IMG/VR virus record: IMGVR_UViG_3300017971_000007
Source of the DNA: a virus
Reading direction: 5' to 3' (one strand)
Length of the DNA: 64,000 bases
The notes beneath the pieces are model-generated. The model was not told where the DNA came from. It did no database searches and saw only the letters and a program-made list of their open reading frames with translations. Position 1 is the stretch's first letter; each line of letters opens with the position of its first letter. Of this stretch, positions 9,907 through 63,716 are shown in pieces. Both the position numbers and the translations under genes were made by a program.

Positions 9907-10201
9907 GAAATACTGGAAATGGTTCGTGGCTGGTCTAGTATCAGCCACTATCGCTATAATGGGGGTATTGTTGTGGAGGAGAGGAAAGGTCAAAACGGAT
10001 TCTGTAACCAGCGACAAGGCCGCGGACAAACTTGAGAAGGACTTAATTGAGATTCAGAAGAAGAAAGAAGACGACCTAAAAAAATTGGAGGAGCAGCGCA
10101 AGGATAAGCTCGGTAGGATGTCAGAAGAGCAGCATGAAGAGTACGAGAAGTTGAAAAACAAACCCGTAGAGGAAGTTGCCGAATGGATAGACAAGCTCTA
10201 G
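9890..10201 (+). CDS. Single-TM coiled-coil protein, i-spanin-like
   Basis: Basic N-terminus, TM WFVAGLVSATIAIMGVLLW, then a charged coiled coil. Confidence 0.4.
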   Translation: MLEKIKKYWKWFVAGLVSATIAIMGVLLWRRGKVKTDSVTSDKAADKLEKDLIEIQKKKEDDLKKLEEQRKDKLGRMSEEQHEEYEKLKNKPVEEVAEWIDKL

Positions 10202-10947
10202 ACCTATATCCGTCATTCTTTGACGAACTAGAAAAAATCGCTGACTATAGCACAGCAGCAATTGCGCACGAATTAGGCCATGCTCAAGCTTTTGAGCAAA
10301 GCAAGATACCTGTAGGTCTAGATATTGGCGGAAGGGCGGCGATAAAATTAGTAGGCAATCTCGCATCATACCTTTCGACTCTACAAGGTAAGCCTGGTTT
10401 GGCCGCAATCTCATCGTTAGTAGCTGATTCCCCGACATTAGTAAGTGAGGGAAGAGCAAGTTACAAGGCCTTGAAGTCCCTGAAAGAAATGGGAATCAGT
10501 GAAGACGACTACAAGACTACCAGAAAGAATCTAGCCAAGGCATTCGGGACGTACATGATTCCAGCTGCAGCCAATGCTCTTACTAGAGCCGGTGCCTCGC
10601 ATTTGATGAAGAAGGGTGTCGTGGGCAGGAGCCCCGATTCATTGGCTGGGACATTAATGACTGAATCGGTTATCGGTATGTTAGGTTCTGGAGCACTGAA
10701 AAAGTCATTCGACAAAACAAGGAAAGACTCGGTGTTAAGTAGAGAGCAGGTAGAGCAGTTAAAGAAGCAGATGGGAGTAGCTACTGGATTTTACAAGGCC
10801 AAGAAATCCCTACAATCAGATGCGTATATGCCTCCTCAACCAAAAATTCTTAGGAAGCCCATCGAGAGAAGTTTAAAGCCGTACCTGAGAGAGAAATCGA
10901 AATCTAAAGAGATTGTAGAAAAAGGCGGAATATTGCTTTTGGATTAG
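10183..10947 (+). CDS. YugP-like (Zn_peptidase_2) membrane zinc metallopeptidase with N-terminal FFDELEKIA tag
   Basis: AHELGHAQ (HExxH), PTLVSEGRASYKAL (third ligand Glu) and AFGTY match the YugP-family pattern AHExGHA...ExxAS.rAl...AxTY. Confidence 0.7.
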   Translation: MDRQALDLYPSFFDELEKIADYSTAAIAHELGHAQAFEQSKIPVGLDIGGRAAIKLVGNLASYLSTLQGKPGLAAISSLVADSPTLVSEGRASYKALKSLKEMGISEDDYKTTRKNLAKAFGTYMIPAAANALTRAGASHLMKKGVVGRSPDSLAGTLMTESVIGMLGSGALKKSFDKTRKDSVLSREQVEQLKKQMGVATGFYKAKKSLQSDAYMPPQPKILRKPIERSLKPYLREKSKSKEIVEKGGILLLD

Positions 10948-10951
10948 GGCT

Positions 10952-11242
10952 ATGATTACTTCCTTACTTAGTTCCTTTCCGTTGTACGCCGAGCTGGGGA
11001 AACTTGGTATTGTCGGCGTTGTTGTGGGCGTTCTTATCTATTTATTAGTGCAGAGTCGAAAAGAGGTCAGGCATCTGCTTTCCTCGAATGAGAAGTCAGC
11101 AACTGACTACATGAAGCACATAGATGAGCTGACTAAAATCACAATAGAGACTAATTGGGAGTGCAGTAAGGCCATGACAGTACAGGCTGAGGTCCTGCGC
11201 TCATTTGAGAGAATCATCGACGGACAGAGGCGAGACAAATGA
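10952..11242 (+). CDS. Small membrane protein (one N-terminal TM plus a helical tail)
   Basis: TM LGIVGVVVGVLIYLLV. Confidence 0.5.
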   Translation: MITSLLSSFPLYAELGKLGIVGVVVGVLIYLLVQSRKEVRHLLSSNEKSATDYMKHIDELTKITIETNWECSKAMTVQAEVLRSFERIIDGQRRDK

Positions 11243-11550
11243 ACGGTTTCAAGAAAACAATCGAGAGACTTGGACTAGTAGAAAAAGGGGTAATCGATGA
11301 ACTCAAATTGGGGGGCGAGGAGCTTCTAGATTATCTCGTCCAAAAGAAGATACTTGATAGTGAGTATCTTCCAATTATCAAGGAAGTGGCCGAGGATGTA
11401 GGAAGCGAGAACCAGCTTCAAGTTCTTAGGGGGGAACAGAAGATACTGAAGGTTCAGTGCTCTCACGTGATCAAGAAATCGGCGAAGATAATTGCTAGGA
11501 TGAGAGATGCTCCTATCCCCAAGAAACATGATCTAGTGGCAGTAAAATGA
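11239..11550 (+). CDS. Hypothetical protein
   Basis: 103-aa ORF with ATGA overlaps on both sides. Confidence 0.6.
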   Translation: MNGFKKTIERLGLVEKGVIDELKLGGEELLDYLVQKKILDSEYLPIIKEVAEDVGSENQLQVLRGEQKILKVQCSHVIKKSAKIIARMRDAPIPKKHDLVAVK

Positions 11551-12947
11551 ACTCATCATTCTTCGACGAATTAACAAAGATAGCAGAAGAGCATAAACTA
11601 CAAGGACATACTAATTTCCAGGGTATTCCGATTGCCGTAGAGAATAGGAAAGGGTCTGTTAGGAAAGGAACAGATTCTGACGGGAATGAGTGGCGAACGG
11701 AGATGAAGTACCCGTACGGGTATGTGAAGGGGACGAAGGGGGCTGATGGGGAAGAAATCGATGTCTATGTCGGTCCTAATAAAGAATCCCCTAATGCTTT
11801 CGTAGTCCATCAAAAGGACAAGGATACCGGGAAGTATGACGAGGATAAATGCTTTCTTGGGTTCGATTCCAAGAAAGATACTAGAGAGGCTTTCCTGAAA
11901 CACTACGACAGCCCGAAATTTTTGGGGCCTATATCCAAGGTTCCGATAGAGAAGCTAAAAGAAAAAATAAGAGAAGGTAAGCAGCTGACGAAAATCAGTT
12001 CTTGTGTGGAATTTGAGAAAAATGCTGTCGACCCCCTCACGTTGGCCGGATTAGGGGCCTTGTCCCATGTAGGCGCGAACCTGGCCGTGAAAGCGGGACA
12101 CGGAACAAAATTTCTTAGGAATGTGAGAAGCGGAGGTCTAGCCAGAGGAATCCGTTCTGGAATAGAAGGAAAGCCGCAGGGAATCGGAAGCAGGATGCTG
12201 GAAACGTGGGCCGGTCCGGAATTGGTGGCCACAGAGCATGCTGGAAGAGGTATCGGAAAGATATTAAGAGGGAGAACTCCTCATCAGCAAAAAAGAGCAC
12301 TAAAGAAATTACGAAAAGCCGTGGCTATGAACCCAAACTTAAAACATACCCCGATAATGGAGGACGTAGTAGGAGGAGTAACTAAGGCAATAGAGGGAGG
12401 ATTACCGAAAGCTGGACCGGTTAGAGAAGCTGGAAGGCTTGCAAGAGCTGCCGCATTCGCTCCAGCACCTATTCTGGCCGCGACCGAACCCTCGGCCTTA
12501 GTTCATATGGGAATTAATGTGGCCAGAAAGGGTGTAGCTCAAAGCAAAGCAGGCAAAGAGTTCATGAGAAAGGGTATGAAACGTGGTCTAGTAGAAGGGG
12601 GAGCAGATGCTGCTCCTTCTGTTAGGGAGAGGATAATGGATGTCCTAGTTTCTCCAGCCGCCTTGCACACAGAACGTATGGGCAGAGCCATGGCGGACCT
12701 TCCTGCAACAGCTAGTAAAGAGCAGTTAGCTAGATTAACCGGAGCTAGCCATAGTTTGATGGGTCAAAAAAGATTGAGAGGTGCTATCAAGAGGGCACCT
12801 AAGGCAGCCGAAGAAAAAATTAAAGGCGAGGCAAGACAGATTAGAGGCGATATCCAGGAAATGGCCCGTCCGGCTCCAAGGAAGGCTTCTCCAGCACCTT
12901 CTGTCGGTGCTACAGATTACGGCATACCATTGGGAGTAAGATGGTGA
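11547..12947 (+). CDS. Two-domain protein: FFDELTKIA tag, inorganic-pyrophosphatase-like (InPase) domain, then a Gly/Ala-rich basic helical domain
   Basis: FQGIPIAVENRKGSVRKG..W...MKYPYGYVKGTKGADGEEIDVYVGP...HQ.....YDEDKCFLGF...A...HY matches the InPase domain of phage/plasmid polyvalent proteins. Confidence 0.75.
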   Translation: MNSSFFDELTKIAEEHKLQGHTNFQGIPIAVENRKGSVRKGTDSDGNEWRTEMKYPYGYVKGTKGADGEEIDVYVGPNKESPNAFVVHQKDKDTGKYDEDKCFLGFDSKKDTREAFLKHYDSPKFLGPISKVPIEKLKEKIREGKQLTKISSCVEFEKNAVDPLTLAGLGALSHVGANLAVKAGHGTKFLRNVRSGGLARGIRSGIEGKPQGIGSRMLETWAGPELVATEHAGRGIGKILRGRTPHQQKRALKKLRKAVAMNPNLKHTPIMEDVVGGVTKAIEGGLPKAGPVREAGRLARAAAFAPAPILAATEPSALVHMGINVARKGVAQSKAGKEFMRKGMKRGLVEGGADAAPSVRERIMDVLVSPAALHTERMGRAMADLPATASKEQLARLTGASHSLMGQKRLRGAIKRAPKAAEEKIKGEARQIRGDIQEMARPAPRKASPAPSVGATDYGIPLGVRW

Positions 12948-13724: not shown

Positions 13725-13733
13725 TACTTTCCC
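13698..13733 (-). promoter_or_regulatory. Programmed -1 ribosomal frameshift signal (G GGA AAG, 7-nt spacer, 8-bp hairpin)
   Basis: Slippery heptamer 13733-13727 sits in frame just before the TAG. Stem GCCTAGTT/AACTAGGC at 13719-13698. The -1 frame is open for 53 further codons. Confidence 0.7.
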
Positions 13734-19024: not shown

Positions 19025-19035
19025 TGTGTCTCCTT

Positions 19036-29591: not shown

Positions 29592-31064
29592 ATGAATTTG
29601 GATTTTTATGATGACGAAAACGGGACTATTCTGAAGTCTAAAATAGCATCTTTGGAAAAGATTCCCGAGTTCATAAAATCAGCAGAAAAATTGGATAAGG
29701 AATCCCTGAATAAATTGCCGGATGATGTATTCGCCTTAGTGGCTAGAAACGGCAATACGACATTCAGAAAATATGCCTGTGTGGATAGAGGAAATACGGC
29801 CCTATCAGTTCTCTATTTCATGGAGAATAGGGACAGATTACCTCTTGAAGCGCAGAAAACTGCGGCCGCGAATCTACTAACTGCGTGCAGTTGGTATGAT
29901 ATACAGCCTCCCTTAGAGCTCCAAAAATTGGCGTTCGTAGGGAAAATGATTGGAGCGGCGACTCTTCTTGGAGGAATTCCAGAAGCAAGTAAGAAGTTCA
30001 AGATGCAGAAGCAGATGCTTAATGCTGGTGTTCCTGGAAGAGAGGTAATGAAAGCCAGTGAAGTTAGTGGTACCGATGCCATGCCTTACAGCAGAGAAGT
30101 ATCAAAGAAAGCTGGAGCCAGGTGGAAGGCTTTTAAAGAAGGATTCGATATCGCAAGAGAGGCTAGAGGAGCTATCAAGGGTTTAGGAAAGACAACAAAA
30201 GAATTCGGACAGGAATCTTTGAAGGGAGAACCGCTGGCAGCCTTAGGACATAGAATCGGATATCTGGCCCCGAAAGCAGCAAAAGCTGTTGCAGGTACGG
30301 CTGCACTCGGAACCGCTTACAAAGTCGGTAAGAAGAAGGGTGAGTCCTCAAAAACAGCCAGCATGAATCCGCATATCGACATAACTGGATTAGAACCAGC
30401 TCCAAAATTTGTCAAAGAAAGCGGTTCAATTTACTGCCTCACCAGAAACGGGAAACCTTCGTATCCGATTAATACGAAGGAGCAGGTGAAGAAAGCCAAT
30501 GCCTACTTTATGGAATATAAGGACGACTTCACTCCATTCGAGAGACACCAGTATTGCGTAAAACTAGCTTCTAGAGCTAAGTCTCTGGATGTCCCCGTGG
30601 ATAAGTTGGTTGAAAAATACGGTTCCAAATCCTACGCAACTGATGCTGGAATCGCTATCTACTCCAGACAGAGATTATTTCGAGAAGGAACGTCAGAACG
30701 TTCTCTACTGGAAGAGATGAGAGATAAATACGCTTCGGTAAATCCAGAGGTAATGGCCACTGCTCTAGAAAAATTTGACAGAGAGAATAATTTAGATTTG
30801 ATGTGGGGTAGAGATATCGAAGATCCGTATCTCAGTTTGTTCGGAATGACGAAGGAAGCAGAGTACAGTTTCGTGGACAGAAACAGGATTGTGTCAGCTA
30901 GCAGGCTACAGAGATGTGCAAAAGAACAGAGAGATGGTTTAATTGATTTGTTCGGGGAAGATTTCGCAAATGAGTTTGCGGAAGACCCTGTTGGAATTTT
31001 TGAGTCAATGCCTTTAGATAAGAAGCGGATAATCATGAATTTGGCCGCTTCTGTCGAACAGTAG
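29592..31064 (+). CDS. Probable internal head protein with two DUF6582-like units and many K-x-A motifs
   Basis: LNKLPDDVFAL...RKYAC.DRGNTALSVLYF and SYPINTKEQVKKANAYF; motifs KSA, KTA, KLA, KKA, KTA, KEA. Confidence 0.5.
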   Translation: MNLDFYDDENGTILKSKIASLEKIPEFIKSAEKLDKESLNKLPDDVFALVARNGNTTFRKYACVDRGNTALSVLYFMENRDRLPLEAQKTAAANLLTACSWYDIQPPLELQKLAFVGKMIGAATLLGGIPEASKKFKMQKQMLNAGVPGREVMKASEVSGTDAMPYSREVSKKAGARWKAFKEGFDIAREARGAIKGLGKTTKEFGQESLKGEPLAALGHRIGYLAPKAAKAVAGTAALGTAYKVGKKKGESSKTASMNPHIDITGLEPAPKFVKESGSIYCLTRNGKPSYPINTKEQVKKANAYFMEYKDDFTPFERHQYCVKLASRAKSLDVPVDKLVEKYGSKSYATDAGIAIYSRQRLFREGTSERSLLEEMRDKYASVNPEVMATALEKFDRENNLDLMWGRDIEDPYLSLFGMTKEAEYSFVDRNRIVSASRLQRCAKEQRDGLIDLFGEDFANEFAEDPVGIFESMPLDKKRIIMNLAASVEQ

Positions 31065-43855: not shown

Positions 43856-44190
43856 TGGAAGACGAACTTTACATCGCAAAAATGGCTTCAGCTTTTTTGG
43901 ATGAGATGACGGAGATAGAAAAAGTGGCCTTATTGGGAGGGGCGCTGAACTTTTTCAAAGGGGGTTTAAGAGGACTATCCAAAGCCGTCTCGGCTCCAGC
44001 TGGAACCTCATTCGCAAGACGTATGGGAGTGGGAAAAACTGGATTGTGGAATCAGCTCAGTCACGCGTACAAGAGCGGAGCTCAGAAGGGGGGATTTAGG
44101 GAGGGTGCTCGTAGAGTGATGGCTCAGAAACCTGTCCAAATTGCGGGAACCGTGGCCGCTCCCGTAGCCGCGGGTTATGCTCTCGGTTAA
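43855..44190 (+). CDS. Small Gly/Ala-rich basic protein with an AFLDEMTEIEKVA tag
   Basis: TAATG coupling to the RNAP stop; hydrophobic C-end. Confidence 0.65.
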   Translation: MEDELYIAKMASAFLDEMTEIEKVALLGGALNFFKGGLRGLSKAVSAPAGTSFARRMGVGKTGLWNQLSHAYKSGAQKGGFREGARRVMAQKPVQIAGTVAAPVAAGYALG

Positions 44191-45791: not shown

Positions 45792-47807
45792 ATGAATCTT
45801 TTTCTGGATGATGTCACTCCTCGGATTATGGAAAAGATCAGTGCAGCTTTCGCCAGGCTGTCTGAGAATCCTGACGATTGGCAATCTGAAATTACAGATG
45901 AACTATACAGGCAAGTTCCGTTTATCGGAGATTTCGACACGAAGATAATCATGATGGAACTTGACCCAGAGAGAAGATATGCACTAGCGGCCATAAAGCT
46001 TAGCAGTAGGCTGAATAAAATCCCGAAACAGGAGAACGGACACAATCCGTATAGCAATGAAATAAGTCCAGATCTATCTGGACAAAAGACGGCAATAATA
46101 CCGGTCATCGTACAAGAGGGAAAGATGAGCCCGTTGGATGTATTTATATCCAACGGAATGTTTCAACCGCTGACGGACAAAAGGCTGAAGAAGGAAATGT
46201 TTAGGCCTCAGATGTTCGAGGCGATTGGAGAGTCACCAGGAACTAAGGACATGACCGAGATGTTGTATCCGCCATATCGAATGGGATTGGGGGGGACGAA
46301 CTCGTATATGGGGCATATGCAAAAATCCAGCTCTCCAAATAGGATAATTGACGTTATTCGACATACCCTCAATCAGAATGAGGTGGAGAAGGTATGCAGT
46401 GCTATAACCGAGGATGAAGAAACTTTGTCCCTGTTTATCAGAAATCCAGAGGCCAGTCATTTCATGGACAAGCTGGTGGAGGACGTGAAGACAGTTTCTT
46501 CTAGTGAGATGATGAAGACGGCCTCGGGGATGATCAAACCCAAAGTCATCCAAATATCAAAAATAGACGGCGGATTCCGTGTTAAGACAGCCAACCCCGA
46601 GGCTTTACTTCCAGAGGAAAATGATATCCCAAGACCGTTGGCTGAAGAAATGGCTGGAGCAGATGTGGTGAGGAAGGTGGAAAATGGGGAGACTGTGACT
46701 ATCAGTACGAACAAGGCCTCCAGAGAATCTCTGGCTGATATTACGGTCAGTGTCGTGGAAGAGTTTGGAGAATATAAGGTCAAGACAAAGGACGGTCGGG
46801 AACTAGTCGGATGGGTGTTTCCTCATGTTGTAGACCTAGACGGGACCTCACTAGATATTTCTGTTTTCACGAACGGTTCCGAATCTGCTGTCCAGGAGTC
46901 AATAGCTGGGAGTCTTGTAGGAAAGGGGACGAATTTAATAGACGAGAATCCGAGCGGATTTGGTATTTTCTATTTAGCCAGACAGGGAGGAGCTACTGCC
47001 ATAGTTCCGGTGAATATTGTGGCAGAAGCTCAATCAACAGAGCTGGTTGATGAATACATCTGCGAAACCATGCTTGGGGAAAGAGTGATTATCAAGAAGC
47101 TACCGGGTTTGGTTAAGGCCGCGCAGATAGAAGATGGTATGTACGCTATCCCAGATGATTGTGGGTGGATTCCCCTCCAAAGAATGACTGAGCTCTCAGA
47201 GAATCCGGACGAGTTTATGAAAACTTCAGCCGTGCGACTCGATTTTGATGCGGTCAAGGTCATGCATGACCACGGCTCTTATTCCATGAAGGGTCGGCAC
47301 ATTGAAAAATTAGCATCTGTGTGCCAGACGAGCGGTATTTCAGAAGACCAGGCAATATTCAATCTGGCTATTTTGGGTATCCCTTCTGATATATCCAGAG
47401 AGAAATTGGCGGAATCGAGGAAATATTCTCATTGGGTGAATATACAGGGAGCGAAACCAGTAAAGTTGTTGAGTGAGAGAATCAAAGAAGCGAGGATGAA
47501 ATCCATTGAGTTCGTGAAGAAGGTTCCGAGAATGCCGATGTTCTTGAAAGAGGCGGCATTGATTGACGACCCATCGACTGTTGATAATGTCCTCTCTCTG
47601 GGATTTCTCAATTCAGAGAATGTATCAACATTTGTGGAATACATCCCTGATTTGGAAAGAACTGTCTCGAGAATGTGCAATCTCTTGATAGCTTCCAGAT
47701 TAGGCCTGAAAAATATCATTGACGTGACTGCCCTGGAACGGCTAATTAAACATATGGATGTGGTAATTAATGGACTAAAAGAATTGTCTCAGTACACAAA
47801 TGATTAG
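45792..47807 (+). CDS. Large head-module protein with multiple K-x-A/S motifs
   Basis: EKISA, MKTAS, MKTSA, EKLAS, LKEAA; strong RBS. Confidence 0.6.
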   Translation: MNLFLDDVTPRIMEKISAAFARLSENPDDWQSEITDELYRQVPFIGDFDTKIIMMELDPERRYALAAIKLSSRLNKIPKQENGHNPYSNEISPDLSGQKTAIIPVIVQEGKMSPLDVFISNGMFQPLTDKRLKKEMFRPQMFEAIGESPGTKDMTEMLYPPYRMGLGGTNSYMGHMQKSSSPNRIIDVIRHTLNQNEVEKVCSAITEDEETLSLFIRNPEASHFMDKLVEDVKTVSSSEMMKTASGMIKPKVIQISKIDGGFRVKTANPEALLPEENDIPRPLAEEMAGADVVRKVENGETVTISTNKASRESLADITVSVVEEFGEYKVKTKDGRELVGWVFPHVVDLDGTSLDISVFTNGSESAVQESIAGSLVGKGTNLIDENPSGFGIFYLARQGGATAIVPVNIVAEAQSTELVDEYICETMLGERVIIKKLPGLVKAAQIEDGMYAIPDDCGWIPLQRMTELSENPDEFMKTSAVRLDFDAVKVMHDHGSYSMKGRHIEKLASVCQTSGISEDQAIFNLAILGIPSDISREKLAESRKYSHWVNIQGAKPVKLLSERIKEARMKSIEFVKKVPRMPMFLKEAALIDDPSTVDNVLSLGFLNSENVSTFVEYIPDLERTVSRMCNLLIASRLGLKNIIDVTALERLIKHMDVVINGLKELSQYTND

Positions 47808-54600: not shown

Positions 54601-54681
54601 ATTTTGCCTCCTCGTGTTAATCTTGTTTTGAGATGGTCCATTGACCTAAGTTCCGATGAATACAATTTAACAGAGGTTAAC

Positions 54682-55545
54682 ATGCCTGCTCCAAGCGATA
54701 TCCCAGAAAGCCTTCTAGAACAGAGAGGAGTCGAAGTAGACCCCGGTGAACTTCAGATTCTAGGAAAAAAGGCGGCAAATCTTTACAAAGAAGGTCTCTC
54801 CAAATTAAGTGAGGCCGTCGTGCAGGCTATAGGCACCAAGGCCATGGGGCCTGAGCACGTAAAGCGAGTTTGTGAGTTTGCTAATCAAGAAGCTTTCCAG
54901 AATGAATGGGACAAAGGCGGGTCTGTCCGGAACATCGAGTTTGATGGAGGCCCTGCTAGCCCCTCTGATGTGCTGAGAAATCTAAACGACGGTTCCAAGC
55001 CTAAAGAACATGTAATCAGTGATTATGATGAGGAGCCTGTTAAGACGTCCTCAGTAGCATCACACAAAATAGATAGGATGCTGTTCGGCAAATTCGCGCA
55101 TCCAATGATGAGGACTCCAGCTGTATCCAATCCGCTTCCGGAAGTAAGGTCCAAAATAGCCAGTGCGAAATCAAATCTTCTGCATGATGTATCTGCATTG
55201 GAGACGGAGAAGATGATGGCTGCCGAAAAGCTGGCCAGTGTATCGACGAACGCGATTTTGGATGGGGAAACGCCGTCTAGGATAAAGGCATCTTGGGAAA
55301 GAGTCGGTGTTGATAAGTTTGCGTACAAGGAAGCGTCCAAGATCTTAGACGATAAAATGGCCAGCCGCGGCATACAGGTCAGGGAATCAGAAAAGACGTC
55401 ATCCAGAGTTCCCAACCCAGCCAATCCCGTGGTTTCTTCGTACATCCATTTCGCGAAAGTAGCTCATCTCTTGAGAGTCAAGCGCGAGGCAATGAAGATA
55501 ATGGATAACTACGAGAAGTCGGTAATGGATTCCATGAGGAAGTGA
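54682..55545 (+). CDS. Head-module protein with K-x-A/S motifs
   Basis: Start MPAPS after GAGG; VKTSS, EKLAS, YKEAS, EKTSS, AKVA. Confidence 0.6.
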   Translation: MPAPSDIPESLLEQRGVEVDPGELQILGKKAANLYKEGLSKLSEAVVQAIGTKAMGPEHVKRVCEFANQEAFQNEWDKGGSVRNIEFDGGPASPSDVLRNLNDGSKPKEHVISDYDEEPVKTSSVASHKIDRMLFGKFAHPMMRTPAVSNPLPEVRSKIASAKSNLLHDVSALETEKMMAAEKLASVSTNAILDGETPSRIKASWERVGVDKFAYKEASKILDDKMASRGIQVRESEKTSSRVPNPANPVVSSYIHFAKVAHLLRVKREAMKIMDNYEKSVMDSMRK

Positions 55546-55546
55546 A

Positions 55547-55876
55547 ATGAATAAATACAGGTTAGCGTATTCGGTCTTAATTAAAGAGGCGCAGGGACTT
55601 CCTACTGAACTCGCAAAGGGGATAATGGGGCTCGGCAAAGGAGCGACAAAGGCATTTTTCAGGTCCGGCAAAGGTTTATCAAGGGCAATGACCGAAGCAG
55701 GGGTCACAAGTCCATTGGCTCATGCCGCAGCTAAATCAATGCCATATGCAGTCGCGGCATATGGAGGAAAGAAGGCGTACGAAAGTGAACCAGCCCAACG
55801 TCTCAGATACAGAATTGCTGAGTACAAACAAAGAAAAGCATTAGAAGATGCTCAGCGGGGAGGCTACTATGGATAA
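55547..55876 (+). CDS. Small Gly/Ala-rich basic protein with an N-terminal LIKEA motif
   Basis: AYSVLIKEAQ followed by amphipathic helices. Confidence 0.6.
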   Translation: MNKYRLAYSVLIKEAQGLPTELAKGIMGLGKGATKAFFRSGKGLSRAMTEAGVTSPLAHAAAKSMPYAVAAYGGKKAYESEPAQRLRYRIAEYKQRKALEDAQRGGYYG

Positions 55877-56507
55877 TCTGAAAAAAGACCTTTCTTCCCT
55901 TGATATGGAGAGAATGAAGATTGCCGTAAACAAACATGCCGGATTTTGGCAATCCATAAAAAACGCCTTCCAAAGTCCTATGGGAAAGAGAGTCACTGGA
56001 GCATTAGGAGAGGCGGCTGCAACAGCAGCGGTCGCTGCCAGTGTAGTTGGTGCAAAGAAGGGGTATGAGGCCCTTAGAGAAAAAATAGAAAAACCCAGAT
56101 TGTACAAGAACATGTTGGAGCTAAATCCGCAGTTGAAAAACGTGGACCAAAACAGAGTGACTAACATGTTTAATACTGTCTACAACCTAAACAGGGACAT
56201 GGCCAAGGATCCTATTGTGGCTGGTTCGTTTGTTGACCGTGGTGTAAGTCAGGCAGAAGGACTTTCTAGTCTGTACATAGACCCGGCTACTACAAAACTT
56301 CTGATGAGTAGTAAAGAACGGAAAGAAGAGCCAGTCTCAACATCATTCATGAGAGCATTCGAATCTTATGGACCAGAGCATTCGGGAAATAAGTTAGAGG
56401 ATCAAAAAACTCTAAAAAGATATGAGAATATGTTGAGGGAAGAGGGAGCTCAAAGACAATTTGAACGGCAGAAAGATTTAGAAGGTTATAAGGCCTCCCT
56501 TCGTTAA
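55869..56507 (+). CDS. Head-module protein with a hydrophobic Ala-rich helix
   Basis: Start after GGAGG; MKIAVNKHAGFW; GALGEAAATAAVAASVVG. Confidence 0.6.
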   Translation: MDNLKKDLSSLDMERMKIAVNKHAGFWQSIKNAFQSPMGKRVTGALGEAAATAAVAASVVGAKKGYEALREKIEKPRLYKNMLELNPQLKNVDQNRVTNMFNTVYNLNRDMAKDPIVAGSFVDRGVSQAEGLSSLYIDPATTKLLMSSKERKEEPVSTSFMRAFESYGPEHSGNKLEDQKTLKRYENMLREEGAQRQFERQKDLEGYKASLR

Positions 56508-56511
56508 GAAA

Positions 56512-59454
56512 ATGCACACTAAACTCTGCAATTATAGACCATTCGATGATCACGGCCAGCAGGTCCTAACAATCCTTCACCATCCGGACCAACTCCATCA
56601 TTCGTATATGGATAAGCTGGCCGCTCCCTACCTTCCACAGGTAAGGGAATTCATCGATAGGTTAAAACCTGACCCAAAGTCCATCTACGCTCTAATTAAT
56701 GCACTGGGAGCGTTTGAATATTATTCCAGCAACATCAACGGCGACGCATTCGAAGAAGAGATGTTGATGCACTCAGGCCCGATATACGGGTACGAGACAT
56801 TCGTTCATTATGCGAAGCCGTTCATGCACCATTGTTTTAGGGCAGGGACAGAAGTAGTGATGGGTGATCGGATAAGGAAGCCTATCGCTCTAATCAAATC
56901 CGGAGAATTAGTAGAAACGAGATTAGGCCCTCGCCCGGTTAAACGTTCTATAAGCCGCCATTACAGCGGACCAGGTGTTCGACTATCTTTATCGGGAGTG
57001 GAAGAAGATATAGAGGGAAGCTGGGACCATCCTGTTTTTGTTTTTCAGCGGGATCAAATACATTGCTCACATAAGTACTCCAGACTCAGACCAGAGCAAC
57101 GTCATTTCGAAGAGTACCCATCATGTCTTGACAAGATTTCCCTGTCTCTAAAAGAAATCCCATTAGGAGAAGTACTTCCCGGAGACTATATGGTGTTTCC
57201 TCGTCCGCAGTTGGGAGGCGAGCAGATTCCGGACGAATTCGCAGAATTAGTCGGTTGGGTAGCATCTGAAGGATACTGTGCGGGACAGCGAGGCATGATT
57301 CAGTTCACGTTCTGCGAATTTAATCACGAGGATATAAAATCTGTCAGTGATTGTCTGAAGAACAATGGGCTGAATGTTACCAAGACTGACATACCAGATA
57401 AAGAGCAGGTAGTTTTATCGTCCTGGTCGGTTGAATTGTGGGACAGACTTCAAGAGTATGTCGTGGGCGTGAAATCTGAGAAGCATCTAACTGGAAGAGT
57501 TCTGTCGTGGAATGAGCGCGCCATAAAACTTTTATTGGGAGTTTATATTGACGGTGACGGGCATGTCCCTAAAAAAGGAAGAAACGAAGGGCAATTAAGG
57601 ATTCGATCCTCTTCCCAGCAAATGTTAAAGGTCTTATCCGACATAATACGGGCGCTGGGAATTCCCACTACTATTCAATGGGACCAAAAACCTGGATATA
57701 GAACATTTCCGAACGGGAAAACTTATTGGTGTAGCGGCAGTGGAACAGTTACGGTGACTCCACAATTCTCCCAGGAGATAACACTATATTCTAGGAAATA
57801 TTATATCAAAGACATGAAAGTTTTTAGGCCGCGTCCAGTTATAGGTAACTTTTTCCTGGTACGTGTTACTGGGAAAGAAGATACCTTTCTGGACGAGGAC
57901 TTATACAATCTTGAGGTTGATGACGTTCCAGAATATGTGGCCGGGGAAGTACTAGTCCATAACTGTAATAAGGGACCGGATGCCAGGGTGTTCGGCTCTG
58001 TGGAATTAAGTTGCTGGAATCCGAACATGCATCGGGTAGAGGTCGTAGCAAGACTCGACAGACAAATGGCTGAACTAGCCAACGCCCAGAGGGTAATTGA
58101 TAAGATAGACCATGGAGAGCTCCCAGAAACTAGCATGGGGGCGAAGGTCCTATTCGATCTCTGTTCTATCACCACCGACTGGGACGAGTATAAGAAGGCC
58201 TTAGCGACGTACAACCCAAATGTTCATAGACATCCTGGTTTTGCTGTCCTTCATTACCACAAAACAAAACGTCCTATACAAGGACTAGCCATAGACAAGG
58301 ATGAATGGACAGACATCTTTAAGACCAGAAGGAATGATATTCTTCCTGATGGCAGGAAAGTGTTTGTCTATAATCCATATCCACGATTCTTTGACATCAG
58401 TTTCGTCTTTATAGGCGCAGAAAAAACTTCGAAGGTAATGGCGAAACTAGCTTCTAGAGGATTCATATCCGTTCCAAGAAATCTTCCGCCAGTCTCCGAG
58501 TACACAGATAAATCCTATGGATTCGAGAAATCAGCATCTGTAGAAGGGGCCAGAAATTTACTCAAAGAGTTCAAGAAAAAAGCCTCACAACTAAAAAGCG
58601 CAGAGCATACAAAAAGGATTGTACCGTCCCAGTTTGGGGACAAAGCAGTTAGCTTAATTGAAAGGGCGGAACCTGATTTGCCGAGGCAATTTCTGGATAT
58701 GATGTCTGAACATCCACTTCAGGAATCCCTGTCAACCCCATGTATGGCCGGCATTACCCTGAAGCCGAAAGAGTTCCAGAGAATTGTCATTATGAGAATC
58801 GGGAACAGGGATATGGCCGATGAGTTGGATAGGGAAAATTGCGTTTTCAGAAAAGTAGATGATGTCGACAAATCGGTTCAAATCGGTCCCCAACACATCA
58901 ACGATCAAATTGCCGAAATGTTGAAGGGGTTGATTGAAGGGAGAAGCGCTTTCGGACCTGTCCTAAAAAGAAGGATGATTAAGATAGTCATCCATGGAAC
59001 CCCTGAAGAAGAACAGGAACCGAGAGAAGTCGAAGACAAGCTCCTTGATAAGATATCCGCCGCGTATAACGGGTACAGAGAGAATGTGATTGAGAAAATC
59101 TCTAGCTTGAGCGGAGAACTTCACAGGTATCCAAATTTGAGGTCTGAGATATATGGAAGGGACCTCACGGACATGTTCTCGAAAACCGCATCCCAACAAT
59201 CGAAAGAATATGAGGATATGTTGGGAGCAGTACCCGCTACTTATTTGATGACTGTCTTCGCCAGAAGACAGATGCAGAAAGATTTGAAGGCCGGAAGAGA
59301 ACCGGATATCCTTACTCAGTTATACGCAGATTATCCACAGTTAGCTAATACTGTGGTAGGTTTAACAGCGTTGAAAGCATCTGGCACATCAGTACCAGAT
59401 GAAGTAATAGCCACAGCAATTAATGCTGGTGAGAACTTGGTACAAAGTAAATAG
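56512..59454 (+). CDS. Prohead (capsid maturation) serine protease with an intein and a long C-terminal extension
   Basis: NINGDAF...YETF...PFMHH|CN...G.V...SMG.....CS...FFDISFV..GAE matches assemblin/HK97-type proteases; located upstream of scaffold-like genes and MCP. Confidence 0.8.
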   Translation: MHTKLCNYRPFDDHGQQVLTILHHPDQLHHSYMDKLAAPYLPQVREFIDRLKPDPKSIYALINALGAFEYYSSNINGDAFEEEMLMHSGPIYGYETFVHYAKPFMHHCFRAGTEVVMGDRIRKPIALIKSGELVETRLGPRPVKRSISRHYSGPGVRLSLSGVEEDIEGSWDHPVFVFQRDQIHCSHKYSRLRPEQRHFEEYPSCLDKISLSLKEIPLGEVLPGDYMVFPRPQLGGEQIPDEFAELVGWVASEGYCAGQRGMIQFTFCEFNHEDIKSVSDCLKNNGLNVTKTDIPDKEQVVLSSWSVELWDRLQEYVVGVKSEKHLTGRVLSWNERAIKLLLGVYIDGDGHVPKKGRNEGQLRIRSSSQQMLKVLSDIIRALGIPTTIQWDQKPGYRTFPNGKTYWCSGSGTVTVTPQFSQEITLYSRKYYIKDMKVFRPRPVIGNFFLVRVTGKEDTFLDEDLYNLEVDDVPEYVAGEVLVHNCNKGPDARVFGSVELSCWNPNMHRVEVVARLDRQMAELANAQRVIDKIDHGELPETSMGAKVLFDLCSITTDWDEYKKALATYNPNVHRHPGFAVLHYHKTKRPIQGLAIDKDEWTDIFKTRRNDILPDGRKVFVYNPYPRFFDISFVFIGAEKTSKVMAKLASRGFISVPRNLPPVSEYTDKSYGFEKSASVEGARNLLKEFKKKASQLKSAEHTKRIVPSQFGDKAVSLIERAEPDLPRQFLDMMSEHPLQESLSTPCMAGITLKPKEFQRIVIMRIGNRDMADELDRENCVFRKVDDVDKSVQIGPQHINDQIAEMLKGLIEGRSAFGPVLKRRMIKIVIHGTPEEEQEPREVEDKLLDKISAAYNGYRENVIEKISSLSGELHRYPNLRSEIYGRDLTDMFSKTASQQSKEYEDMLGAVPATYLMTVFARRQMQKDLKAGREPDILTQLYADYPQLANTVVGLTALKASGTSVPDEVIATAINAGENLVQSK
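56833..57963 (+). mobile_element. Intein in the prohead protease (377 aa) with a LAGLIDADG domain
   Basis: CFRAGTEV...SWDHP...LYNLEV..EYVAGEVLVHN/C; VGWVASEG and LGVYIDGDG. Confidence 0.93.
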
Positions 59455-59533: not shown

Positions 59534-60334
59534 ATGAACGATTTTTTAGCTCAACTGTACAGCACGAACGAGATCATTAACCCCCCAAGCAAGGAAGAGC
59601 TTGAAAAACAAGCAAGCGCCGAGTTCCTTTGCAAGCTGGCAGCGGATGAAGGCGTCGACCTGAACACGTTGTCGGATGCGCAGATTTCAGAGCTCCTCCA
59701 AGAGGTGGAGAAATCGGCGTCACAACAACCGCAACAACCCAACGAGGTTGACAAAGAGGCCGCCGATAAAATGGCCGAGGCCGATTTCCTTGGACGGGCA
59801 ATGGCTCATGCCTATGTCAACGAGCTCAACGAAATCGAGAAAGAAGCCGGTAAAGCCCAGGACGCGTATCAGGCGGTCAAAGGCGCGCTCGGCAAAGCTG
59901 GGAAAGCGGCTGGAGAGTGGACAGGATTGAGTGGCATTAGGTCTGGAGCGAGACAGCGAGCAGCCGGGAAAAGATTAGCCCAGCTTGGAAAGACCAGGGG
60001 ACAGTCTGATATCGGCGTGGCTGCCGCAGAACGAGCCGGAAAAGCTGCGGCTGGTAAAATTGGGAAGGGGTCGGAGGAGATGAAAGCCGGTCTTAAGAGA
60101 CTTGGAATGAGAGTCGGCCTTCCAGCTGCTGGTTTGGCGGCTGCCGGTGTCGGGGCAAAAGCACTCGGGAGCGAGAAAAAATCCTATAACGAACAAATCG
60201 AAGAACTGGCCCAAGAACGCGCCTATCAGATGTTAGATGAAGCCGGTCTTCTCGAAAAACAAGCTTCTAATGACGTCGAACTTCGAGCTCTCCAGCTTCT
60301 CGAACAAGCCGGATACGATGTAAACTGGGGTTAA
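59534..60334 (+). CDS. Scaffold/internal head protein with repeated EKxA motifs
   Basis: EKQAS, CKLAA, EKSAS, DKEAA, DKMAE, EKEAG, EKQAS. Confidence 0.6.
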   Translation: MNDFLAQLYSTNEIINPPSKEELEKQASAEFLCKLAADEGVDLNTLSDAQISELLQEVEKSASQQPQQPNEVDKEAADKMAEADFLGRAMAHAYVNELNEIEKEAGKAQDAYQAVKGALGKAGKAAGEWTGLSGIRSGARQRAAGKRLAQLGKTRGQSDIGVAAAERAGKAAAGKIGKGSEEMKAGLKRLGMRVGLPAAGLAAAGVGAKALGSEKKSYNEQIEELAQERAYQMLDEAGLLEKQASNDVELRALQLLEQAGYDVNWG

Positions 60335-60350
60335 TCTAATCTAGCTTATG

Positions 60351-60379
60351 GATGGGGAGAGCGTGCTCTCCCCATCTTT
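60351..60379 (+). terminator. GC-rich hairpin (weak terminator or mRNA stabiliser)
   Basis: GATGGGGAGAG-cgtg-CTCTCCCCATC followed by TTT. Confidence 0.55.
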
Positions 60380-60388
60380 AGAGACAAA

Positions 60389-60670
60389 ATGATAGACGGA
60401 ATTTCAAAATCTGCTTTCTTTGACGAACTGGAGAAAATTTCTGCAGATATCGCACATTCTATTAGCGGTACACAGAGCGAAGTTCCGACTAAGCCTGGAG
60501 AGATAAAGCCTCCAATAAGTCCGGTTAAACTAAAAGCTAAAGTGATTAATCCTGCTACTAAGAAGGGGTTAAACACAAACTATACGAGATCTAACGTAGA
60601 GGCACCGGGTACAGATATCAGCGTTGGGATGAACGCCAAAATGGCCCCTCCGCCGCCCGTTAGGTACTAG
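60389..60670 (+). CDS. 93-aa Pro-rich protein with an AFFDELEKISA tag
   Basis: Tag almost identical to those at 10183 and 11547. Confidence 0.7.
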   Translation: MIDGISKSAFFDELEKISADIAHSISGTQSEVPTKPGEIKPPISPVKLKAKVINPATKKGLNTNYTRSNVEAPGTDISVGMNAKMAPPPPVRY

Positions 60671-60678
60671 GAGAGAAC

Positions 60679-61737
60679 ATGAAACTTACTCTTCAACAAA
60701 TGATTGCTAGCGCAATTGAAGAGGCTAACGAAAGGGATAAGCTGGCCCAGGCAGAAGAGGAAAACGGAAGTAAGCAGGAAGGGAAGAACGGAGAGGGTAA
60801 AAACGGAGAAGAGAAAAAGAAGGAAGAAAAGAAATCCGTTGACTCTGAAACTGTGGAAAAGACGGCCTCGGCGCTAGAATATATTCTAGGGAATATCAAG
60901 CATATCAATTGGGAGAAAACTGCCAGCGGTATCCAGCTCCCACCACAAAAACCGAATGCGCCGGAGCCGACTGTCGGGGCCGGAATAGGAGAGACGGCGA
61001 CTCCAACAAATATGGGAACACCGACTCCGGGGATGCAGAATTATGACCTCGGAGCTGCCAATAATCAATTATCGAGCGGCTCACCAAAAGATGATGCGGC
61101 GAAAGAGGATGGACAAGTTAACCCTCAAACGTCTATTCAGACCGATATGAAACATGTTCCAGGTGGAACCGGTGAGCAAGCTCAGCTTGTCGAGAATTCC
61201 AAAATCTCCACCGTAAGGAAATTTTGGAATATGAGGAAACAGGCAGAAGATGCAGTGAATCCGGCTAAAGTAAGTGCCGGCTCGGAGCCTCTAGAGAATC
61301 CGAATGCATCAGCGTCTGAAGAAAACGTCCCTCCTTCACCTCCAGCAAAAAATGCTCAAGAGTCGATGATTTCTTCGAACGAGGCAGCCATAAATTACAC
61401 CAAGGGAGATGCAAAAGCGCAGCCCAAAAAGGAGATGGGTCAGGTCCTAAATGAACCGGCCCAGACGAAATCCACGGACCCGGTTTTGCAGAATAACTTG
61501 GACGCTGCTTCATCTGCTGGAGTAAAAATTTCCTCGGTCAGGATTCAGGCATTCCGGAAATATATCCAGAAATTAGCACAGGCCGAAAAGGATGGAACCC
61601 TGACCGATGAAGAGAAGGAGAGACTCCAGAAGGTGAAAGACGCGATGGGGAAAAACGGCAAGGAGAAGCAGAGTCAGGGGATGCTCCCATCTCCAACTCC
61701 ACAGACTCCGATGATGCCGGGAACGACGGGATTCTAG
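60679..61737 (+). CDS. Largely disordered scaffold-like protein
   Basis: EKTAS twice, KLAQ twice, RKQA; P/Q/N-rich. Confidence 0.55.
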   Translation: MKLTLQQMIASAIEEANERDKLAQAEEENGSKQEGKNGEGKNGEEKKKEEKKSVDSETVEKTASALEYILGNIKHINWEKTASGIQLPPQKPNAPEPTVGAGIGETATPTNMGTPTPGMQNYDLGAANNQLSSGSPKDDAAKEDGQVNPQTSIQTDMKHVPGGTGEQAQLVENSKISTVRKFWNMRKQAEDAVNPAKVSAGSEPLENPNASASEENVPPSPPAKNAQESMISSNEAAINYTKGDAKAQPKKEMGQVLNEPAQTKSTDPVLQNNLDAASSAGVKISSVRIQAFRKYIQKLAQAEKDGTLTDEEKERLQKVKDAMGKNGKEKQSQGMLPSPTPQTPMMPGTTGF

Positions 61738-61746
61738 GAGGTAATA

Positions 61747-62127
61747 ATGGAAAAAATCAGCTCAACAAAAGTCGCCGCCGTGCTTGCAGCTGTTCCCGGA
61801 ATGTTGCGGTCTCTCAAGAATGAGCGGGACCAGCTTCGAGAGAAAACTGCTTCTCTGGAAAATGAGTTAAACCAGTACAAACAGCAAATGAGAATCGATA
61901 ATCTGGCAAAAGAGGCTGAACAGAAGGGAATCGATGTCTGGGGAGCGACTCATGCAGATAAAGTAGCAGCGATTCAAGAGAGAGTCTCCAGCGGGAACGA
62001 CATCGCTGTGTTGGAAGAAGCTATCAAGCTGTCTTCTCCGCAATACAAGATGGGGAGTCTTTCTGAGGATAAACTAGAAAACACTGGCTCACAGCTGGAA
62101 GCTTATCTAAGCGGGGCTATTGAATAG
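61747..62127 (+). CDS. Coiled-coil scaffold-like protein
   Basis: MEKISS, EKTAS; coiled coil; ends LEAYL. Confidence 0.55.
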   Translation: MEKISSTKVAAVLAAVPGMLRSLKNERDQLREKTASLENELNQYKQQMRIDNLAKEAEQKGIDVWGATHADKVAAIQERVSSGNDIAVLEEAIKLSSPQYKMGSLSEDKLENTGSQLEAYLSGAIE

Positions 62128-62141
62128 TTTAGGAGATAAAA

Positions 62142-62579
62142 ATGCCAAACGTTAGAATCTACACTCCGGTGGAGAAGATCTTCATCAAGGATTTGGTGAT
62201 GGCAGACAGGACCCTCCTTCGACCATCCAACTCAAATCCGTTGGTGGAGGGAGAATTTCTGGAGCTCGACGCCAATTATAAGGCCATTCGGTCTGGAGGA
62301 GATGCTCTCTCTTTCATGTTCTGGGCAGAAAAAGGTCGCTCAGACACCCAAGCAATCGGCAAAGTACCTACCTTGTACATGGGCGGATACGAGGCCGATA
62401 CCATCGTCTATGACTCCACGGCTTTGGGTTTGGGTAATGCGTTGATGGTGGATGATGTATCATTCGAATCCCTGACCCGCTCTGGCTTGAAAAAGCATGG
62501 TGGCGGGGACGAGCTCGTTATCGGATACGTAACCAGGGTTCTGTCAGACAGAGTCCGGTTCATGCAAGTCTTGGTCTAA
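62142..62579 (+). CDS. Probable capsid decoration (cement) protein
   Basis: 145 aa, beta-rich, immediately upstream of MCP. Confidence 0.55.
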   Translation: MPNVRIYTPVEKIFIKDLVMADRTLLRPSNSNPLVEGEFLELDANYKAIRSGGDALSFMFWAEKGRSDTQAIGKVPTLYMGGYEADTIVYDSTALGLGNALMVDDVSFESLTRSGLKKHGGGDELVIGYVTRVLSDRVRFMQVLV

Positions 62580-62594
62580 TTAAAGGAGAAAATA

Positions 62595-63716
62595 ATGGAA
62601 GCTCAATTAATGAACGAACTCTTCTCCCAAAGATTAGACAGCCATGAAGGCAGGGAGAAGGTTGCCCAATACAGCGGGAACTACATTCGTGATAAGCTGC
62701 GTGAAGTCAGCTATGCTCGTCAGATTATCCCACCAGAAGATGTGACGGCCAAGGACTGTCAGGTCAGTGTAAATCACGATACTCTCGTCAAGATCATCGA
62801 AGTCGAGCCCCAATCTCGGGCCATGGCAATCACATTCCGTGGAAGCCCTGACGCCAGATTCATCCGAGCACCGAGAGCAGAAGTTCCGTTCTTCACCATC
62901 GCTTCCGAGAAATTCGAGAAGACGGAAGAGGAACTTCTCGCCTACACCATGCCCGTGACCAAAATCATAGAGGACAATACGGCCAAAGATATGGAAGAGG
63001 TGGAAGACCGAGAATTCACAATCCATATTGAAGCCGCCGTACAAGCCCTTCAGGCCGAAGCAAATGGTGTGGCCGCAGCCCCCATTCTTAACGCAACCAC
63101 TCTTCAGGGAGCCACCCCTCCAGTTGAGTTCTCTGTCCGTAAGGGCGAGCTGGCCAGAGCAGCCACGACCAATGGTTCAGTTCCATTACCAGTCCAACGG
63201 CCTGATTTCGTGAATTTGTTCAAAATGCTGGACAATAACCGACTTCGTTGTGCCTTGGTTCTGATCGCTGAAGGTGATTGGGACGATGTCTTGCAGTGGA
63301 CTGTCGAGGACTTCGGCGACAAATTCCAGTCAGAGACAGCGGTTGATGGATACAAGTACAATACCCTTTTGGGCCGTGCTTATGTCCGAACCATCAAAAC
63401 CGATATTCTCCGTCCAGGGAATTTGTACGCGTTCACCAAACCCGAGTTCTTAGGGAAATTCTTTGTCTTGTCGAAGGCCAAGTTCTACATCGACAAGATT
63501 ATGAATCTCATCACATGGGCGTCCTGGGAAACGATTGCCATGGCGATTGTTAATATCGCGTCCGTGAGAAAGCTGGAGCTCTACTCCGGAGACGCGACCT
63601 TGAACGATAACGATGGAATTCTGTCTTCGGTCATCCCTGTGGCTGAAGAAGAGCTCGGCGCTGTCAATAACAAGGTCGAGGAAGGTCTGCATTACCCGGC
63701 TGTCGAGATGTACTAG
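62595..63716 (+). CDS. Major capsid protein (HK97 fold)
   Basis: 373 aa. IRDKLREVSYARQII...VPFFTIAS...KDMEEVEDREF recalls the capsid proteins of Bxz1-like large myoviruses (from memory, not a search). Position after protease, scaffold and decoration genes fits. Confidence 0.8.
   Translation: MEAQLMNELFSQRLDSHEGREKVAQYSGNYIRDKLREVSYARQIIPPEDVTAKDCQVSVNHDTLVKIIEVEPQSRAMAITFRGSPDARFIRAPRAEVPFFTIASEKFEKTEEELLAYTMPVTKIIEDNTAKDMEEVEDREFTIHIEAAVQALQAEANGVAAAPILNATTLQGATPPVEFSVRKGELARAATTNGSVPLPVQRPDFVNLFKMLDNNRLRCALVLIAEGDWDDVLQWTVEDFGDKFQSETAVDGYKYNTLLGRAYVRTIKTDILRPGNLYAFTKPEFLGKFFVLSKAKFYIDKIMNLITWASWETIAMAIVNIASVRKLELYSGDATLNDNDGILSSVIPVAEEELGAVNNKVEEGLHYPAVEMY

Follow-up and report, generated by a model that had tools for sequence, protein, structure and literature searches.

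Unrelated proteins of large tailed phages share an N-terminal leader that is most likely a removable label for loading cargo into the capsid

Introduction

The head protease of phage T4 cuts after Glu in L/I-x-E, that of phiKZ cuts after Glu in (S/A/G)-x-E, and the sites of herpesviruses have a hydrophobic residue at P3. Encapsulin cargo peptides are mostly C-terminal and uncleaved, and the loading of the phage P1 Dar proteins uses a hierarchy of proteins, not a shared leader. In T4, the internal proteins and Alt carry a capsid targeting sequence which is removed by gp21 (Mullaney and Black, 1996, as cited in PMC10052503). In phiKZ and SPN3US, one protease (gp175 and gp245, respectively) trims many head and ejection proteins at one short motif (PMC10052503; PMC5694885), and the SPN3US protease yields N-terminal propeptides and prefers Ser at P1' (PMC10052503). 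The herpesvirus assemblin pUL26 is a protease-scaffold fusion with a release and a maturation site, which are cut after Ala (YLQA-T, VQA-S; PMC4498786). Here, a stretch of 64,000 nucleotides from the IMG/VR virus record IMGVR_UViG_3300017971_000007 (the whole stretch is called the window hereafter) was analyzed for two elements: a leader peptide of the type SFFDELEKIA at the N-terminus of otherwise unrelated proteins (the tag), and a shorter motif, K-x-A/S, in proteins of the head module. The same leader of roughly 10 residues is found on many unrelated enzymes of this uncultured phage and of hundreds of its relatives, and its most likely role is that of a removable label by which cargo is loaded into the capsid.

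Results

Tagged and motif-bearing proteins of the window

The original prediction had listed near-identical peptides on unrelated proteins that are up to 50 kb apart, and a check of the open reading frames (ORFs) recovered every one of them in its place. The genes concerned are the following.

10183..10947, + strand: tagged candidate cargo 1, resembling HExxH zinc peptidases; SFFDELEKIA at aa 11-20 (nt 10213-10242)
11547..12947, + strand: tagged candidate cargo 2, InPase-domain protein; SFFDELTKIA at aa 4-13 (nt 11556-11585)
29592..31064, + strand: 490-aa protein; N-terminal F-I-K-S-A
32645..33436, + strand: looser leader CSEELEKTA at aa 9-17, followed by a glycine-zipper-like region
43855..44190, + strand (ORF start 43774/43855): small protein; leader AFLDEMTEIEKVA at nt 43891-43929
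45792..47807, + strand: 671-aa protein of the structural block; N-terminal IMEKISA (aa 12-18) and four further motif copies
54604..56507, + strand: three head-module proteins (54604, 55547, 55848); EKLAS, DKFAY, DKMAS, EKTSS, MKIAV
56512..59454, + strand: prohead protease with predicted assemblin-type fold and a C-terminal domain of about 300 aa; split by an intein
59534..60334, + strand: scaffold-like protein; 7 motif copies and an internal tag-like helix AYVNELNEIEKEA at aa 93-105
60389..60670, + strand: tagged small protein of 93 aa within the head module; AFFDELEKISA at aa 9-19 (nt 60413-60445)
60679..62127, + strand: scaffold-like proteins 60679 (352 aa, low complexity) and 61747 (126 aa, coiled coil; MEKISS at the N-terminus)
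62595..63716, + strand: major capsid protein (PHROG 2522, E 4.5e-9); GREKVAQ at aa 19-25, with E-K-V-A at aa 21-24 (nt 62655-62666)

In the 10183 protein, HELGH was found at aa 29-33, i.e., 9 residues behind the tag; its match to Pfam PF04298 is weak (E 3.3e-5, 24 bits; cut-off 27 bits). The InPase domain of the 11547 protein covers aa 17-141 (Pfam PF18823, E 1.5e-45), and the linker between this domain and the second domain contains two motifs, LTKISS..FEKNA, at aa 147-160 (nt 11985-12026). InPase domains matched PHROGs whose annotations are minor head protein, virion structural protein and DarB-like protein. The tagged genes are located in late or structural operons, one of them (60389) between scaffold-like genes. 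The helix of the tag is amphipathic (F1, F2, L5, I8, A9), and the peptide is acidic, unlike a hydrophobic signal peptide.

Distribution of the tag in sequence databases

IMG/VR was scanned with a degenerate DNA pattern for [SA]-F-x-D-E-L-x-K-I-A, resulting in at least 119 stretches with at least 137 matches and at least 89 distinct peptides. The contigs bearing the tag are mostly 130-210 kb in size, with up to four tags per stretch among the matches listed. For 136 of the 137 listed matches the tag lies in an open frame, and for 102 of them (74%) an ATG is found no more than 13 residues upstream. The reversed peptide served as a control and yielded 50 matches with 11 distinct peptides, none of which adjoins an ATG, compared to about 5 matches anticipated a priori; most of the 50 represent one conserved peptide. 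Because of this number, the argument for the tag rests on its N-terminal position and its diversity and not on raw counts. The conserved peptide of the control, AIKWLEDAFA (37 of the 50 matches, which are L137-L186), belongs to an unrelated conserved protein family located on isolate-genome contigs, mostly of 20-50 kb, which may be prophages.

When the tag was removed, the 79 distinct tagged proteins among the matches listed fell into 64 BLAST clusters. The Pfam families identified among 50 tagged proteins included Peptidase_C92, SNF2 helicases, ATP-dependent ligase/LigD, transketolase domains, GNAT, glyoxalase, DnaJ, MazG and NlpC/P60, and many of the listed tagged proteins are small non-enzymes of 50-100 aa. 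The original prediction regarded the helix as a portable tag for new effectors; in the phage metagenomes, many unrelated cargo domains do bear it at their N-terminus. No tagged protein matched the profile of the protease described below, and this also holds for L022, L025, L052, L059 and L082, in which the tag is internal. All of the tag-bearing or related contigs that were tested (9 out of 9) encode a member of this protease family.

Across 126 sequence contexts, F, D, E and L are strongly conserved, as are the biased positions -4 (I/V) and -2 (hydrophobic), and Met is the commonest residue at position -7. The conservation drops off directly after K-I-A, where a variable linker rich in small residues follows. 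For the fixed residues of the tag all synonymous codons are in use, which indicates that selection acts on the peptide rather than on the RNA.

The strict long tag was found in three copies in the window, compared to 0-1 copies in shuffled DNA. Two complete genomes of relatives, G006 (186,879 bp) and G008 (177,773 bp), contain 4 and 7 matches, respectively, which are mostly N-terminal and all on the late strand; here, too, shuffled DNA gave 0-1. In prokaryote genomes (596 Gb), the tag is N-terminal in only 16 of 123 matches, and several of these 16 look like phage contigs binned into metagenome-assembled genomes (MAGs). Genuine N-terminal tags on contigs that are filed under bacterial MAGs but look like phage genomes were seen in L294 (three tags), L227 (a 174-kb contig in a Desulfatibacillum MAG), L261, L276 and L280; these might hint at hosts but prove nothing.

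Enrichment of the short motif in the head module

The head module was defined as positions 54604-63716 in the window and as gp218-226 in Salmonella phage Arash. Expected counts were derived from shuffling each protein individually, 200 times for the window and 500 times for Arash. In the head module of the window, EK.[AS] was observed 18 times compared to 3.4 expected, a number reached in 0 of the 200 shuffles. For EK.AS, 8 occurrences were found (0.10 expected), and for DK.[AS] 9 (1.75 expected). The control words KE.[AS] and ER.[AS] showed no enrichment. EK.[AS] is likewise not enriched in other blocks of the window, with 1 occurrence versus 4.7 expected for replication, 0 versus 0.65 for the tail and 1 versus 2.2 for the RNA polymerase.

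As an unbiased check against cherry-picking, all three-residue patterns of six gap shapes were enumerated for the head module (about 48,000 tests). The top patterns were K.AS (14 versus 1.5 expected, p 1e-9) and EK..S (12 versus 1.4, p 3.5e-8), both of which survive correction; EK.A was returned as well. The motif supplies the best pattern of four gap shapes and the second-best of a fifth. The core of the motif was therefore taken as hydrophobic-(E/D)-K-x-(A/S)-(S/A). Directly behind the motif, Ser is found at 3.8 times its background frequency.

Conservation of the motif in related phages

The nearest relatives of the window are 15 IMG/VR contigs of up to 189 kb, whose capsid proteins are 61-70% identical to that of the window and whose other head proteins are just 30-40% identical. 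Distant relatives are also known, namely the cultured Salmonella phage Arash and three phages of Vibrio (capsid identity 25-27%).

(E/D)-K-x-(A/S) is enriched about threefold in 14 of the 15 related loci. When G006 and G008 were divided into bins of 10 kb, only the bin at 110-120 kb, which contains the protease and scaffold-like genes, reached p<1e-3, with ratios of 3.7 and 5.5; the neighboring bin of G006, which contains the capsid gene, shows an elevated ratio as well (2.9). The top-scoring genes of both genomes are the protease and a scaffold-like orthologue. In the Arash head module, 17 sites were found compared to 4.2 expected, and 0 of 500 shuffles reach 17. The neighboring polymerase, helicase and tail genes of Arash contain 3 sites (3.4 expected) and are thus not enriched, nor is the motif enriched in gp1-17 or in the baseplate and early genes of this phage. 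The original prediction had assigned the motif by eye to the head proteins rather than to those of replication or the baseplate and had proposed a statistical comparison. The counts bear out this assignment, and the preference for head-module over replication or tail proteins holds in the window, in its relatives and in Arash.

The positions of the motif are also conserved in orthologues of about 30-40% identity. Lysines of the motif are conserved in a fraction of 0.51 of the orthologues, compared to 0.30 for other lysines (p 0.014), and at most sites K-x-[AS] is retained within 3 alignment columns in most orthologues. E-K-x-A at the capsid N-terminus is present in 14 of 14 aligned orthologues. 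Most motif sites of the scaffold-like protein 59534 are kept in 5-8 of 8 orthologues, and in the 60679 family (general form V-E-K-L/T-A-S/A-A) V-EKTAS-A is conserved in 11 of 13. The N-terminus of 45792 has K-x-[AS]-A at the same place in its G006 and G008 orthologues. The site F-I-K-S-A of 29592 appears as V-K-T-A and I-K-T-A in the orthologues of this protein. The orthologue of the tagged 60389 protein in L011 and L012 bears MADEMLKISA. A chance copy of the motif inside the intein of the protease is not conserved, as expected.

The protease and its fold

The gene at 56512-59454 contains an intein of 377 aa with LAGLIDADG motifs (aa 108-484, nt 56833-57963), which is inserted at HH|CNKG. Orthologues are mostly intein-free and 565-720 aa in length. 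Their N-terminal core of about 270 aa is conserved, and a variable linker joins it to a C-terminal domain of about 300 aa. The protease of L013 has an intein at a site other than that in the window. The family is a hot spot for inteins, as many members contain one to three of them, with 2-4 separated profile matches and lengths of up to 1,691 aa.

No sequence match was found in Pfam, PHROGs or PDB sequences for the window protein, for an intein-free orthologue or for the profile. A search with the core profile identified 2,760 cluster representatives (50% identity) at E <=1e-3, of which 1,009 remain at 1e-30. The proteins thus form a separate sequence family with a predicted assemblin fold.

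An AlphaFold2 model from an alignment of 67 sequences reached a predicted local distance difference test (pLDDT) value of 90.6. It replaced a first model from 10 sequences, which had a pLDDT of 59 and gave no usable fold match. In an exhaustive structural comparison against 48,161 chains, the top four were the proteases of varicella-zoster virus (VZV; Z 10.4), T4 (gp21; 9.3), human cytomegalovirus (HCMV; 7.9) and KSHV (Kaposi's sarcoma-associated herpesvirus; 5.6), and unrelated folds scored a Z of 5.4 or less. According to this model, the product of 56512-59454 has the capsid maturation protease fold of the assemblin type, a beta-barrel shared by herpesvirus (S21), T4 gp21-type and HK97-type proteases. 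The "spliced protease" of the original prediction is therefore an intein-bearing protein with a predicted fold of this kind.

His107, Ser541 and His583 of the window protein are candidate catalytic residues. The equivalent residues (His109, Ser165 and His207 in L003 numbering) are invariant in 67 sequences, in the order His-Ser-His. Copies of the motif are located at aa 34-37 close to the N-terminus, at aa 637-640 at the end of the core, at aa 672-676 in the linker and at aa 846-865. In the N-terminal copy, K38 and A40 are conserved to at least 90% across 67 family members, and in the linker between the core and the C-terminal domain one alignment column, E-K-x-A-[SA], is conserved.

The protease gene is followed by the scaffold-like genes and then by the capsid gene, both in the window and in all 13 related loci for which the stretch covers the protease gene. 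Arash gp222 (OQ632216.1, 146737-148212), annotated merely as 'structural protein', belongs to the family as well (E 3e-40), which makes Arash a culturable model for the clade. A complex prediction of the L011 protease domain with a tagged 97-aa protein of the same phage, made without control runs, gave a score of 0.00, which counts neither for nor against binding.

InPase modules bounded by the motif

The InPase domain was found in three architectures, in each of which K-x-A precedes the domain at a fixed distance. In the window, the domain is part of a separate tagged gene (11547), begins four residues behind the tag and is followed by two motif copies. At L008:4431-6596 (+ strand), an InPase domain which is 44% identical to that of 11547 is inserted into the linker of the protease gene, at a place flanked on either side by a copy of the motif. 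In G006, the domain is located inside a tagged protein of 484 aa, directly behind F-R-K-L-A. Judged from the sequences, such motif-flanked placement would be expected of domains that are released from precursors at motif sites. The layout of L008 represents a natural polyprotein arrangement.

Organization of the window

The 64 kb window consists of three blocks, namely a plus-strand block, a minus-strand replication block and a long plus-strand late block:

First block, + strand: tail-fibre-like giants (beta-helix and PKD domains), then small genes
13724-29466, minus strand: replication block
29592-63716, + strand: late block with fused RNA polymerase, large terminase and a head module ending in the major capsid protein

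The source of the window is a tailed phage of roughly 175-180 kb. The RNA polymerase (36089-43855, + strand) is a single ORF of 2,588 aa, in which beta and beta' are fused and which contains a LAGLIDADG intein; it is located within the late/structural operon. The wider clade encodes its own multisubunit RNA polymerase, and in mass spectra of Arash virions the polymerase subunits were the most abundant proteins (PMC10585845). The polymerase of the window was considered as a further tagged cargo on account of its N-terminal NFEALKEKVSE and was rejected. The orthologues in G006 and G008 do not retain EKVS, so that a role of the polymerase as tagged cargo is not supported.

Inteins occur in three essential late genes of the window, namely the large terminase (49177-53409, + strand), the RNA polymerase (36089-43855, + strand) and the prohead protease (56512-59454, + strand). 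Within the late block, no convincing plus-strand gene was found at 53446-54600. A lone minus-strand ORF of 247 aa at 53857-54600 matches HTH_17 weakly, at an E-value of 2.7e-5 and without reaching the cut-off.

Discussion

Proposed function of the leader and the motif

It appears reasonably probable that an assemblin-type serine protease matures the head at hydrophobic-(E/D)-K-x-(A/S) and that the leader is a portable propeptide which loads cargo. In this scheme, head maturation would be carried out by the protease encoded by 56512-59454, which would recognize this word, usually followed by S, A or E. The sites would mark the short N-terminal propeptide of the capsid protein, many places in the scaffold-like proteins, the N-terminus and linker of the protease and the boundaries of accessory domains. 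Capsid propeptide, scaffold-like proteins and protease would be trimmed there. The leader, M-x(2-10)-[AS]-F-x-D-E-L-x-K-I-A, would act as an amphipathic helix ending in a protease site, with the FxDEL helix giving entry into the procapsid and the K-I-A end giving release by clipping. The cargo would then be packaged and probably delivered with the DNA. In the window it would comprise the zinc peptidase-like protein, the InPase-domain protein and small proteins, and in the relatives helicases, ligases, acetyltransferases and amidases.

We infer that the motif sites are cleaved in the head proteins and in the tagged proteins, that the FxDEL part provides the capsid targeting and that the tagged cargo is injected. 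The cut would follow the A/S, with Lys as P3 and Ala/Ser as P1, because proteases of the assemblin fold read a P3-x-P1 word. By analogy to herpesviruses and SPN3US, the excess of Ser behind the motif would correspond to P1'.

Some observations weigh against this interpretation. The top Foldseek hit of the protease model is the pseudorabies assemblin, but its E-value of 0.048 is not significant; for this reason the fold was assigned from the VIA Z-scores and from which proteins the top hits are. Shuffling each protein individually ignores the local composition of the E/K/A-rich scaffold-like proteins, and the unenriched control words argue against an artefact of this kind without excluding it. 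A cut at MEKISS of 61747 would free only about 5 residues, so that this copy suits a binding motif as well as a cut site. Finally, the motif-rich gp220-225 of Arash are listed in virions with 80-100% 'coverage' (PMC10585845), which would contradict trimming if taken literally. These values are uninterpretable either way, because 100% from 2-9 peptides cannot be literal and because the 116 'virion proteins' include ribonucleotide reductases.

Alternative explanations

K-x-A/S could be the protease site without FxDEL being an address. The leader would then be a propeptide that silences enzymes until maturation, or an extended handle on the substrate, and the cargo would enter by other contacts. 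Such a role would fit the 10183 protein, whose HExxH lies only 9 residues behind the tag, and the tag can be read as an N-terminally extended form of the general site, which has a hydrophobic residue ahead of E-K-x-A; moreover, no receptor for the tag was identified in the analysis. On the many tagged proteins that are small non-enzymes of 50-100 aa, however, a zymogen lock would be purposeless, and F, D, E, L and positions -4 and -2 are conserved more strongly across the 126 contexts than the other sites of the same protease need, so this explanation is regarded as unlikely. Motif and tag might also form a helix that stays uncleaved and docks onto a hub protein, for instance the scaffold, the portal or the C-terminal domain of the protease, similar to scaffold-coat helix contacts or encapsulin cargo peptides. 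We consider this quite unlikely: the motif is placed where maturation proteases act (the capsid N-terminus, scaffold-like proteins, termini and linker of the protease, domain borders), and conservation ends right behind K-I-A, where the variable linker of small residues begins, even though an amphipathic helix, the internal copy in the scaffold-like 59534 and MEKISS at the extreme N-terminus of 61747 are all features that docking would explain.

That the tag addresses another destination (a phage-built compartment, the membrane or secretion) or binds a chaperone is very unlikely, given that it ends in a motif enriched only in head-module proteins, that the tagged genes belong to late or structural operons with one of them amid scaffold-like genes, and that the peptide is acidic and not a hydrophobic signal peptide. 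This idea draws on DNA enzymes among the cargo, such as SNF2 helicases and ligases, which also act in replication, and on the multisubunit RNA polymerase of the wider clade, as encoded by nucleus-forming phages. An origin in the composition of helical E/K/A-rich proteins, together with common ancestry of a few paralogues, is hardly credible. The scaffold-like proteins are indeed rich in E, K and A, and some small tagged proteins are tandem paralogues (L011, L078), but the control words are unenriched, unbiased enumeration picks the motif, and the tagged proteins form 64 unrelated clusters. In addition, the tag is N-terminal, the sites keep their positions in orthologues and the synonymous codons vary freely. 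The artefact is already contradicted by these observations.

Extent and implications

The reading as a cleavable loading leader can be extended to a whole clade, although we do so only tentatively. A very large, mostly uncultured clade of phages of about 130-210 kb, with a protease family of 2,760 representatives at 50% identity to which Arash belongs, may use one universal, transferable FxDELxKIA address. With this address, a varying set of enzymes (SNF2 helicases, DNA ligases, acetyltransferases, MazG, amidases, peptidases, InPase) would be loaded into the capsid for injection, and the address would be clipped by an assemblin-fold protease with herpesvirus-like Ala|Ser specificity.

If this is true, the injected cargo of hundreds of uncultured large phages could be listed from sequence, and much of host takeover and anti-defence is played out through such cargo. 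In addition, the capsid maturation proteases would be extended by a new and large sequence family. As a portable loader of 10-17 residues with a built-in release site, the leader would be a practical handle for packaging foreign proteins. Arash, with its known member of the protease family and its motif-rich head module, makes the reading testable in culture.

Comparison with known systems

The principle of a capsid targeting sequence combined with one protease motif across the head proteins is already known from T4 and phiKZ. The code described here, the leader conserved across the clade, the diversity of the cargo and the protease family appear undescribed: no description of them was found in the literature searched, the string 'DELEKIA' does not occur there, and the Arash paper makes no mention of a protease or of cleavage (PMC10585845).

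The system resembles the T4 capsid targeting sequence in that a short N-terminal peptide ending in a presumed head-protease motif is present on unrelated proteins, and in that the protease has a predicted assemblin fold with gp21 as the second-best match. It differs in the word, which is K-x-A/S in the window, in that no membership of the protease in the gp21 family was found by sequence (no Pfam match), and in the tag, which is far more conserved and widespread here.

Like phiKZ and SPN3US, the phages of this clade have many head proteins with copies of one motif, presumed N-terminal propeptides, some of them with multiple sites, and a preference for Ser after the site. The proteases of phiKZ and SPN3US cut themselves at their motif; here, motif copies in the protease itself would allow the same. 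A virion-associated multisubunit RNA polymerase is also shared with the wider clade, as seen in the mass spectra of Arash (PMC10585845). In contrast, the enriched word is K-x-A/S (K.AS, EK..S, EK.A) and not (S/A/G)-x-E, and no conserved 10-residue cargo leader has been described for phiKZ and SPN3US. The genomes are about 175-200 kb in size, and the protease has a fused C-terminal domain of about 300 aa.

Encapsulins and the P1 Dar system are similar to the proposed system in that unrelated enzymes are directed into the interior of an HK97-fold shell by a short portable peptide or by an N-terminal region, and the InPase domains found here match DarB-like PHROGs. Compared to encapsulin cargo peptides, the leader is N-terminal and coupled to a motif of the protease type.

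The herpesvirus proteases provide the best structural match (VZV) and share the order His...Ser...His of the invariant residues as well as the arrangement of protease domain, site-bearing linker and C-terminal domain. At herpesvirus sites, P1 is Ala and P1' is Ser/Thr, to which the Ala and Ser of the enriched core x-A-S would correspond here. The differences are the Lys at the presumed P3, the lack of detectable sequence similarity, and the context of a phage with separate scaffold-like genes and cargo leaders. If the proposed cleavage is correct, the substrate word Lys-x-Ala/Ser, often followed by Ser, would be nearer to the Ala-Ser of the herpesviruses than to the Glu sites of T4 and phiKZ, which would bear on how specificity evolved in the assembly machinery that phages and herpesviruses share.

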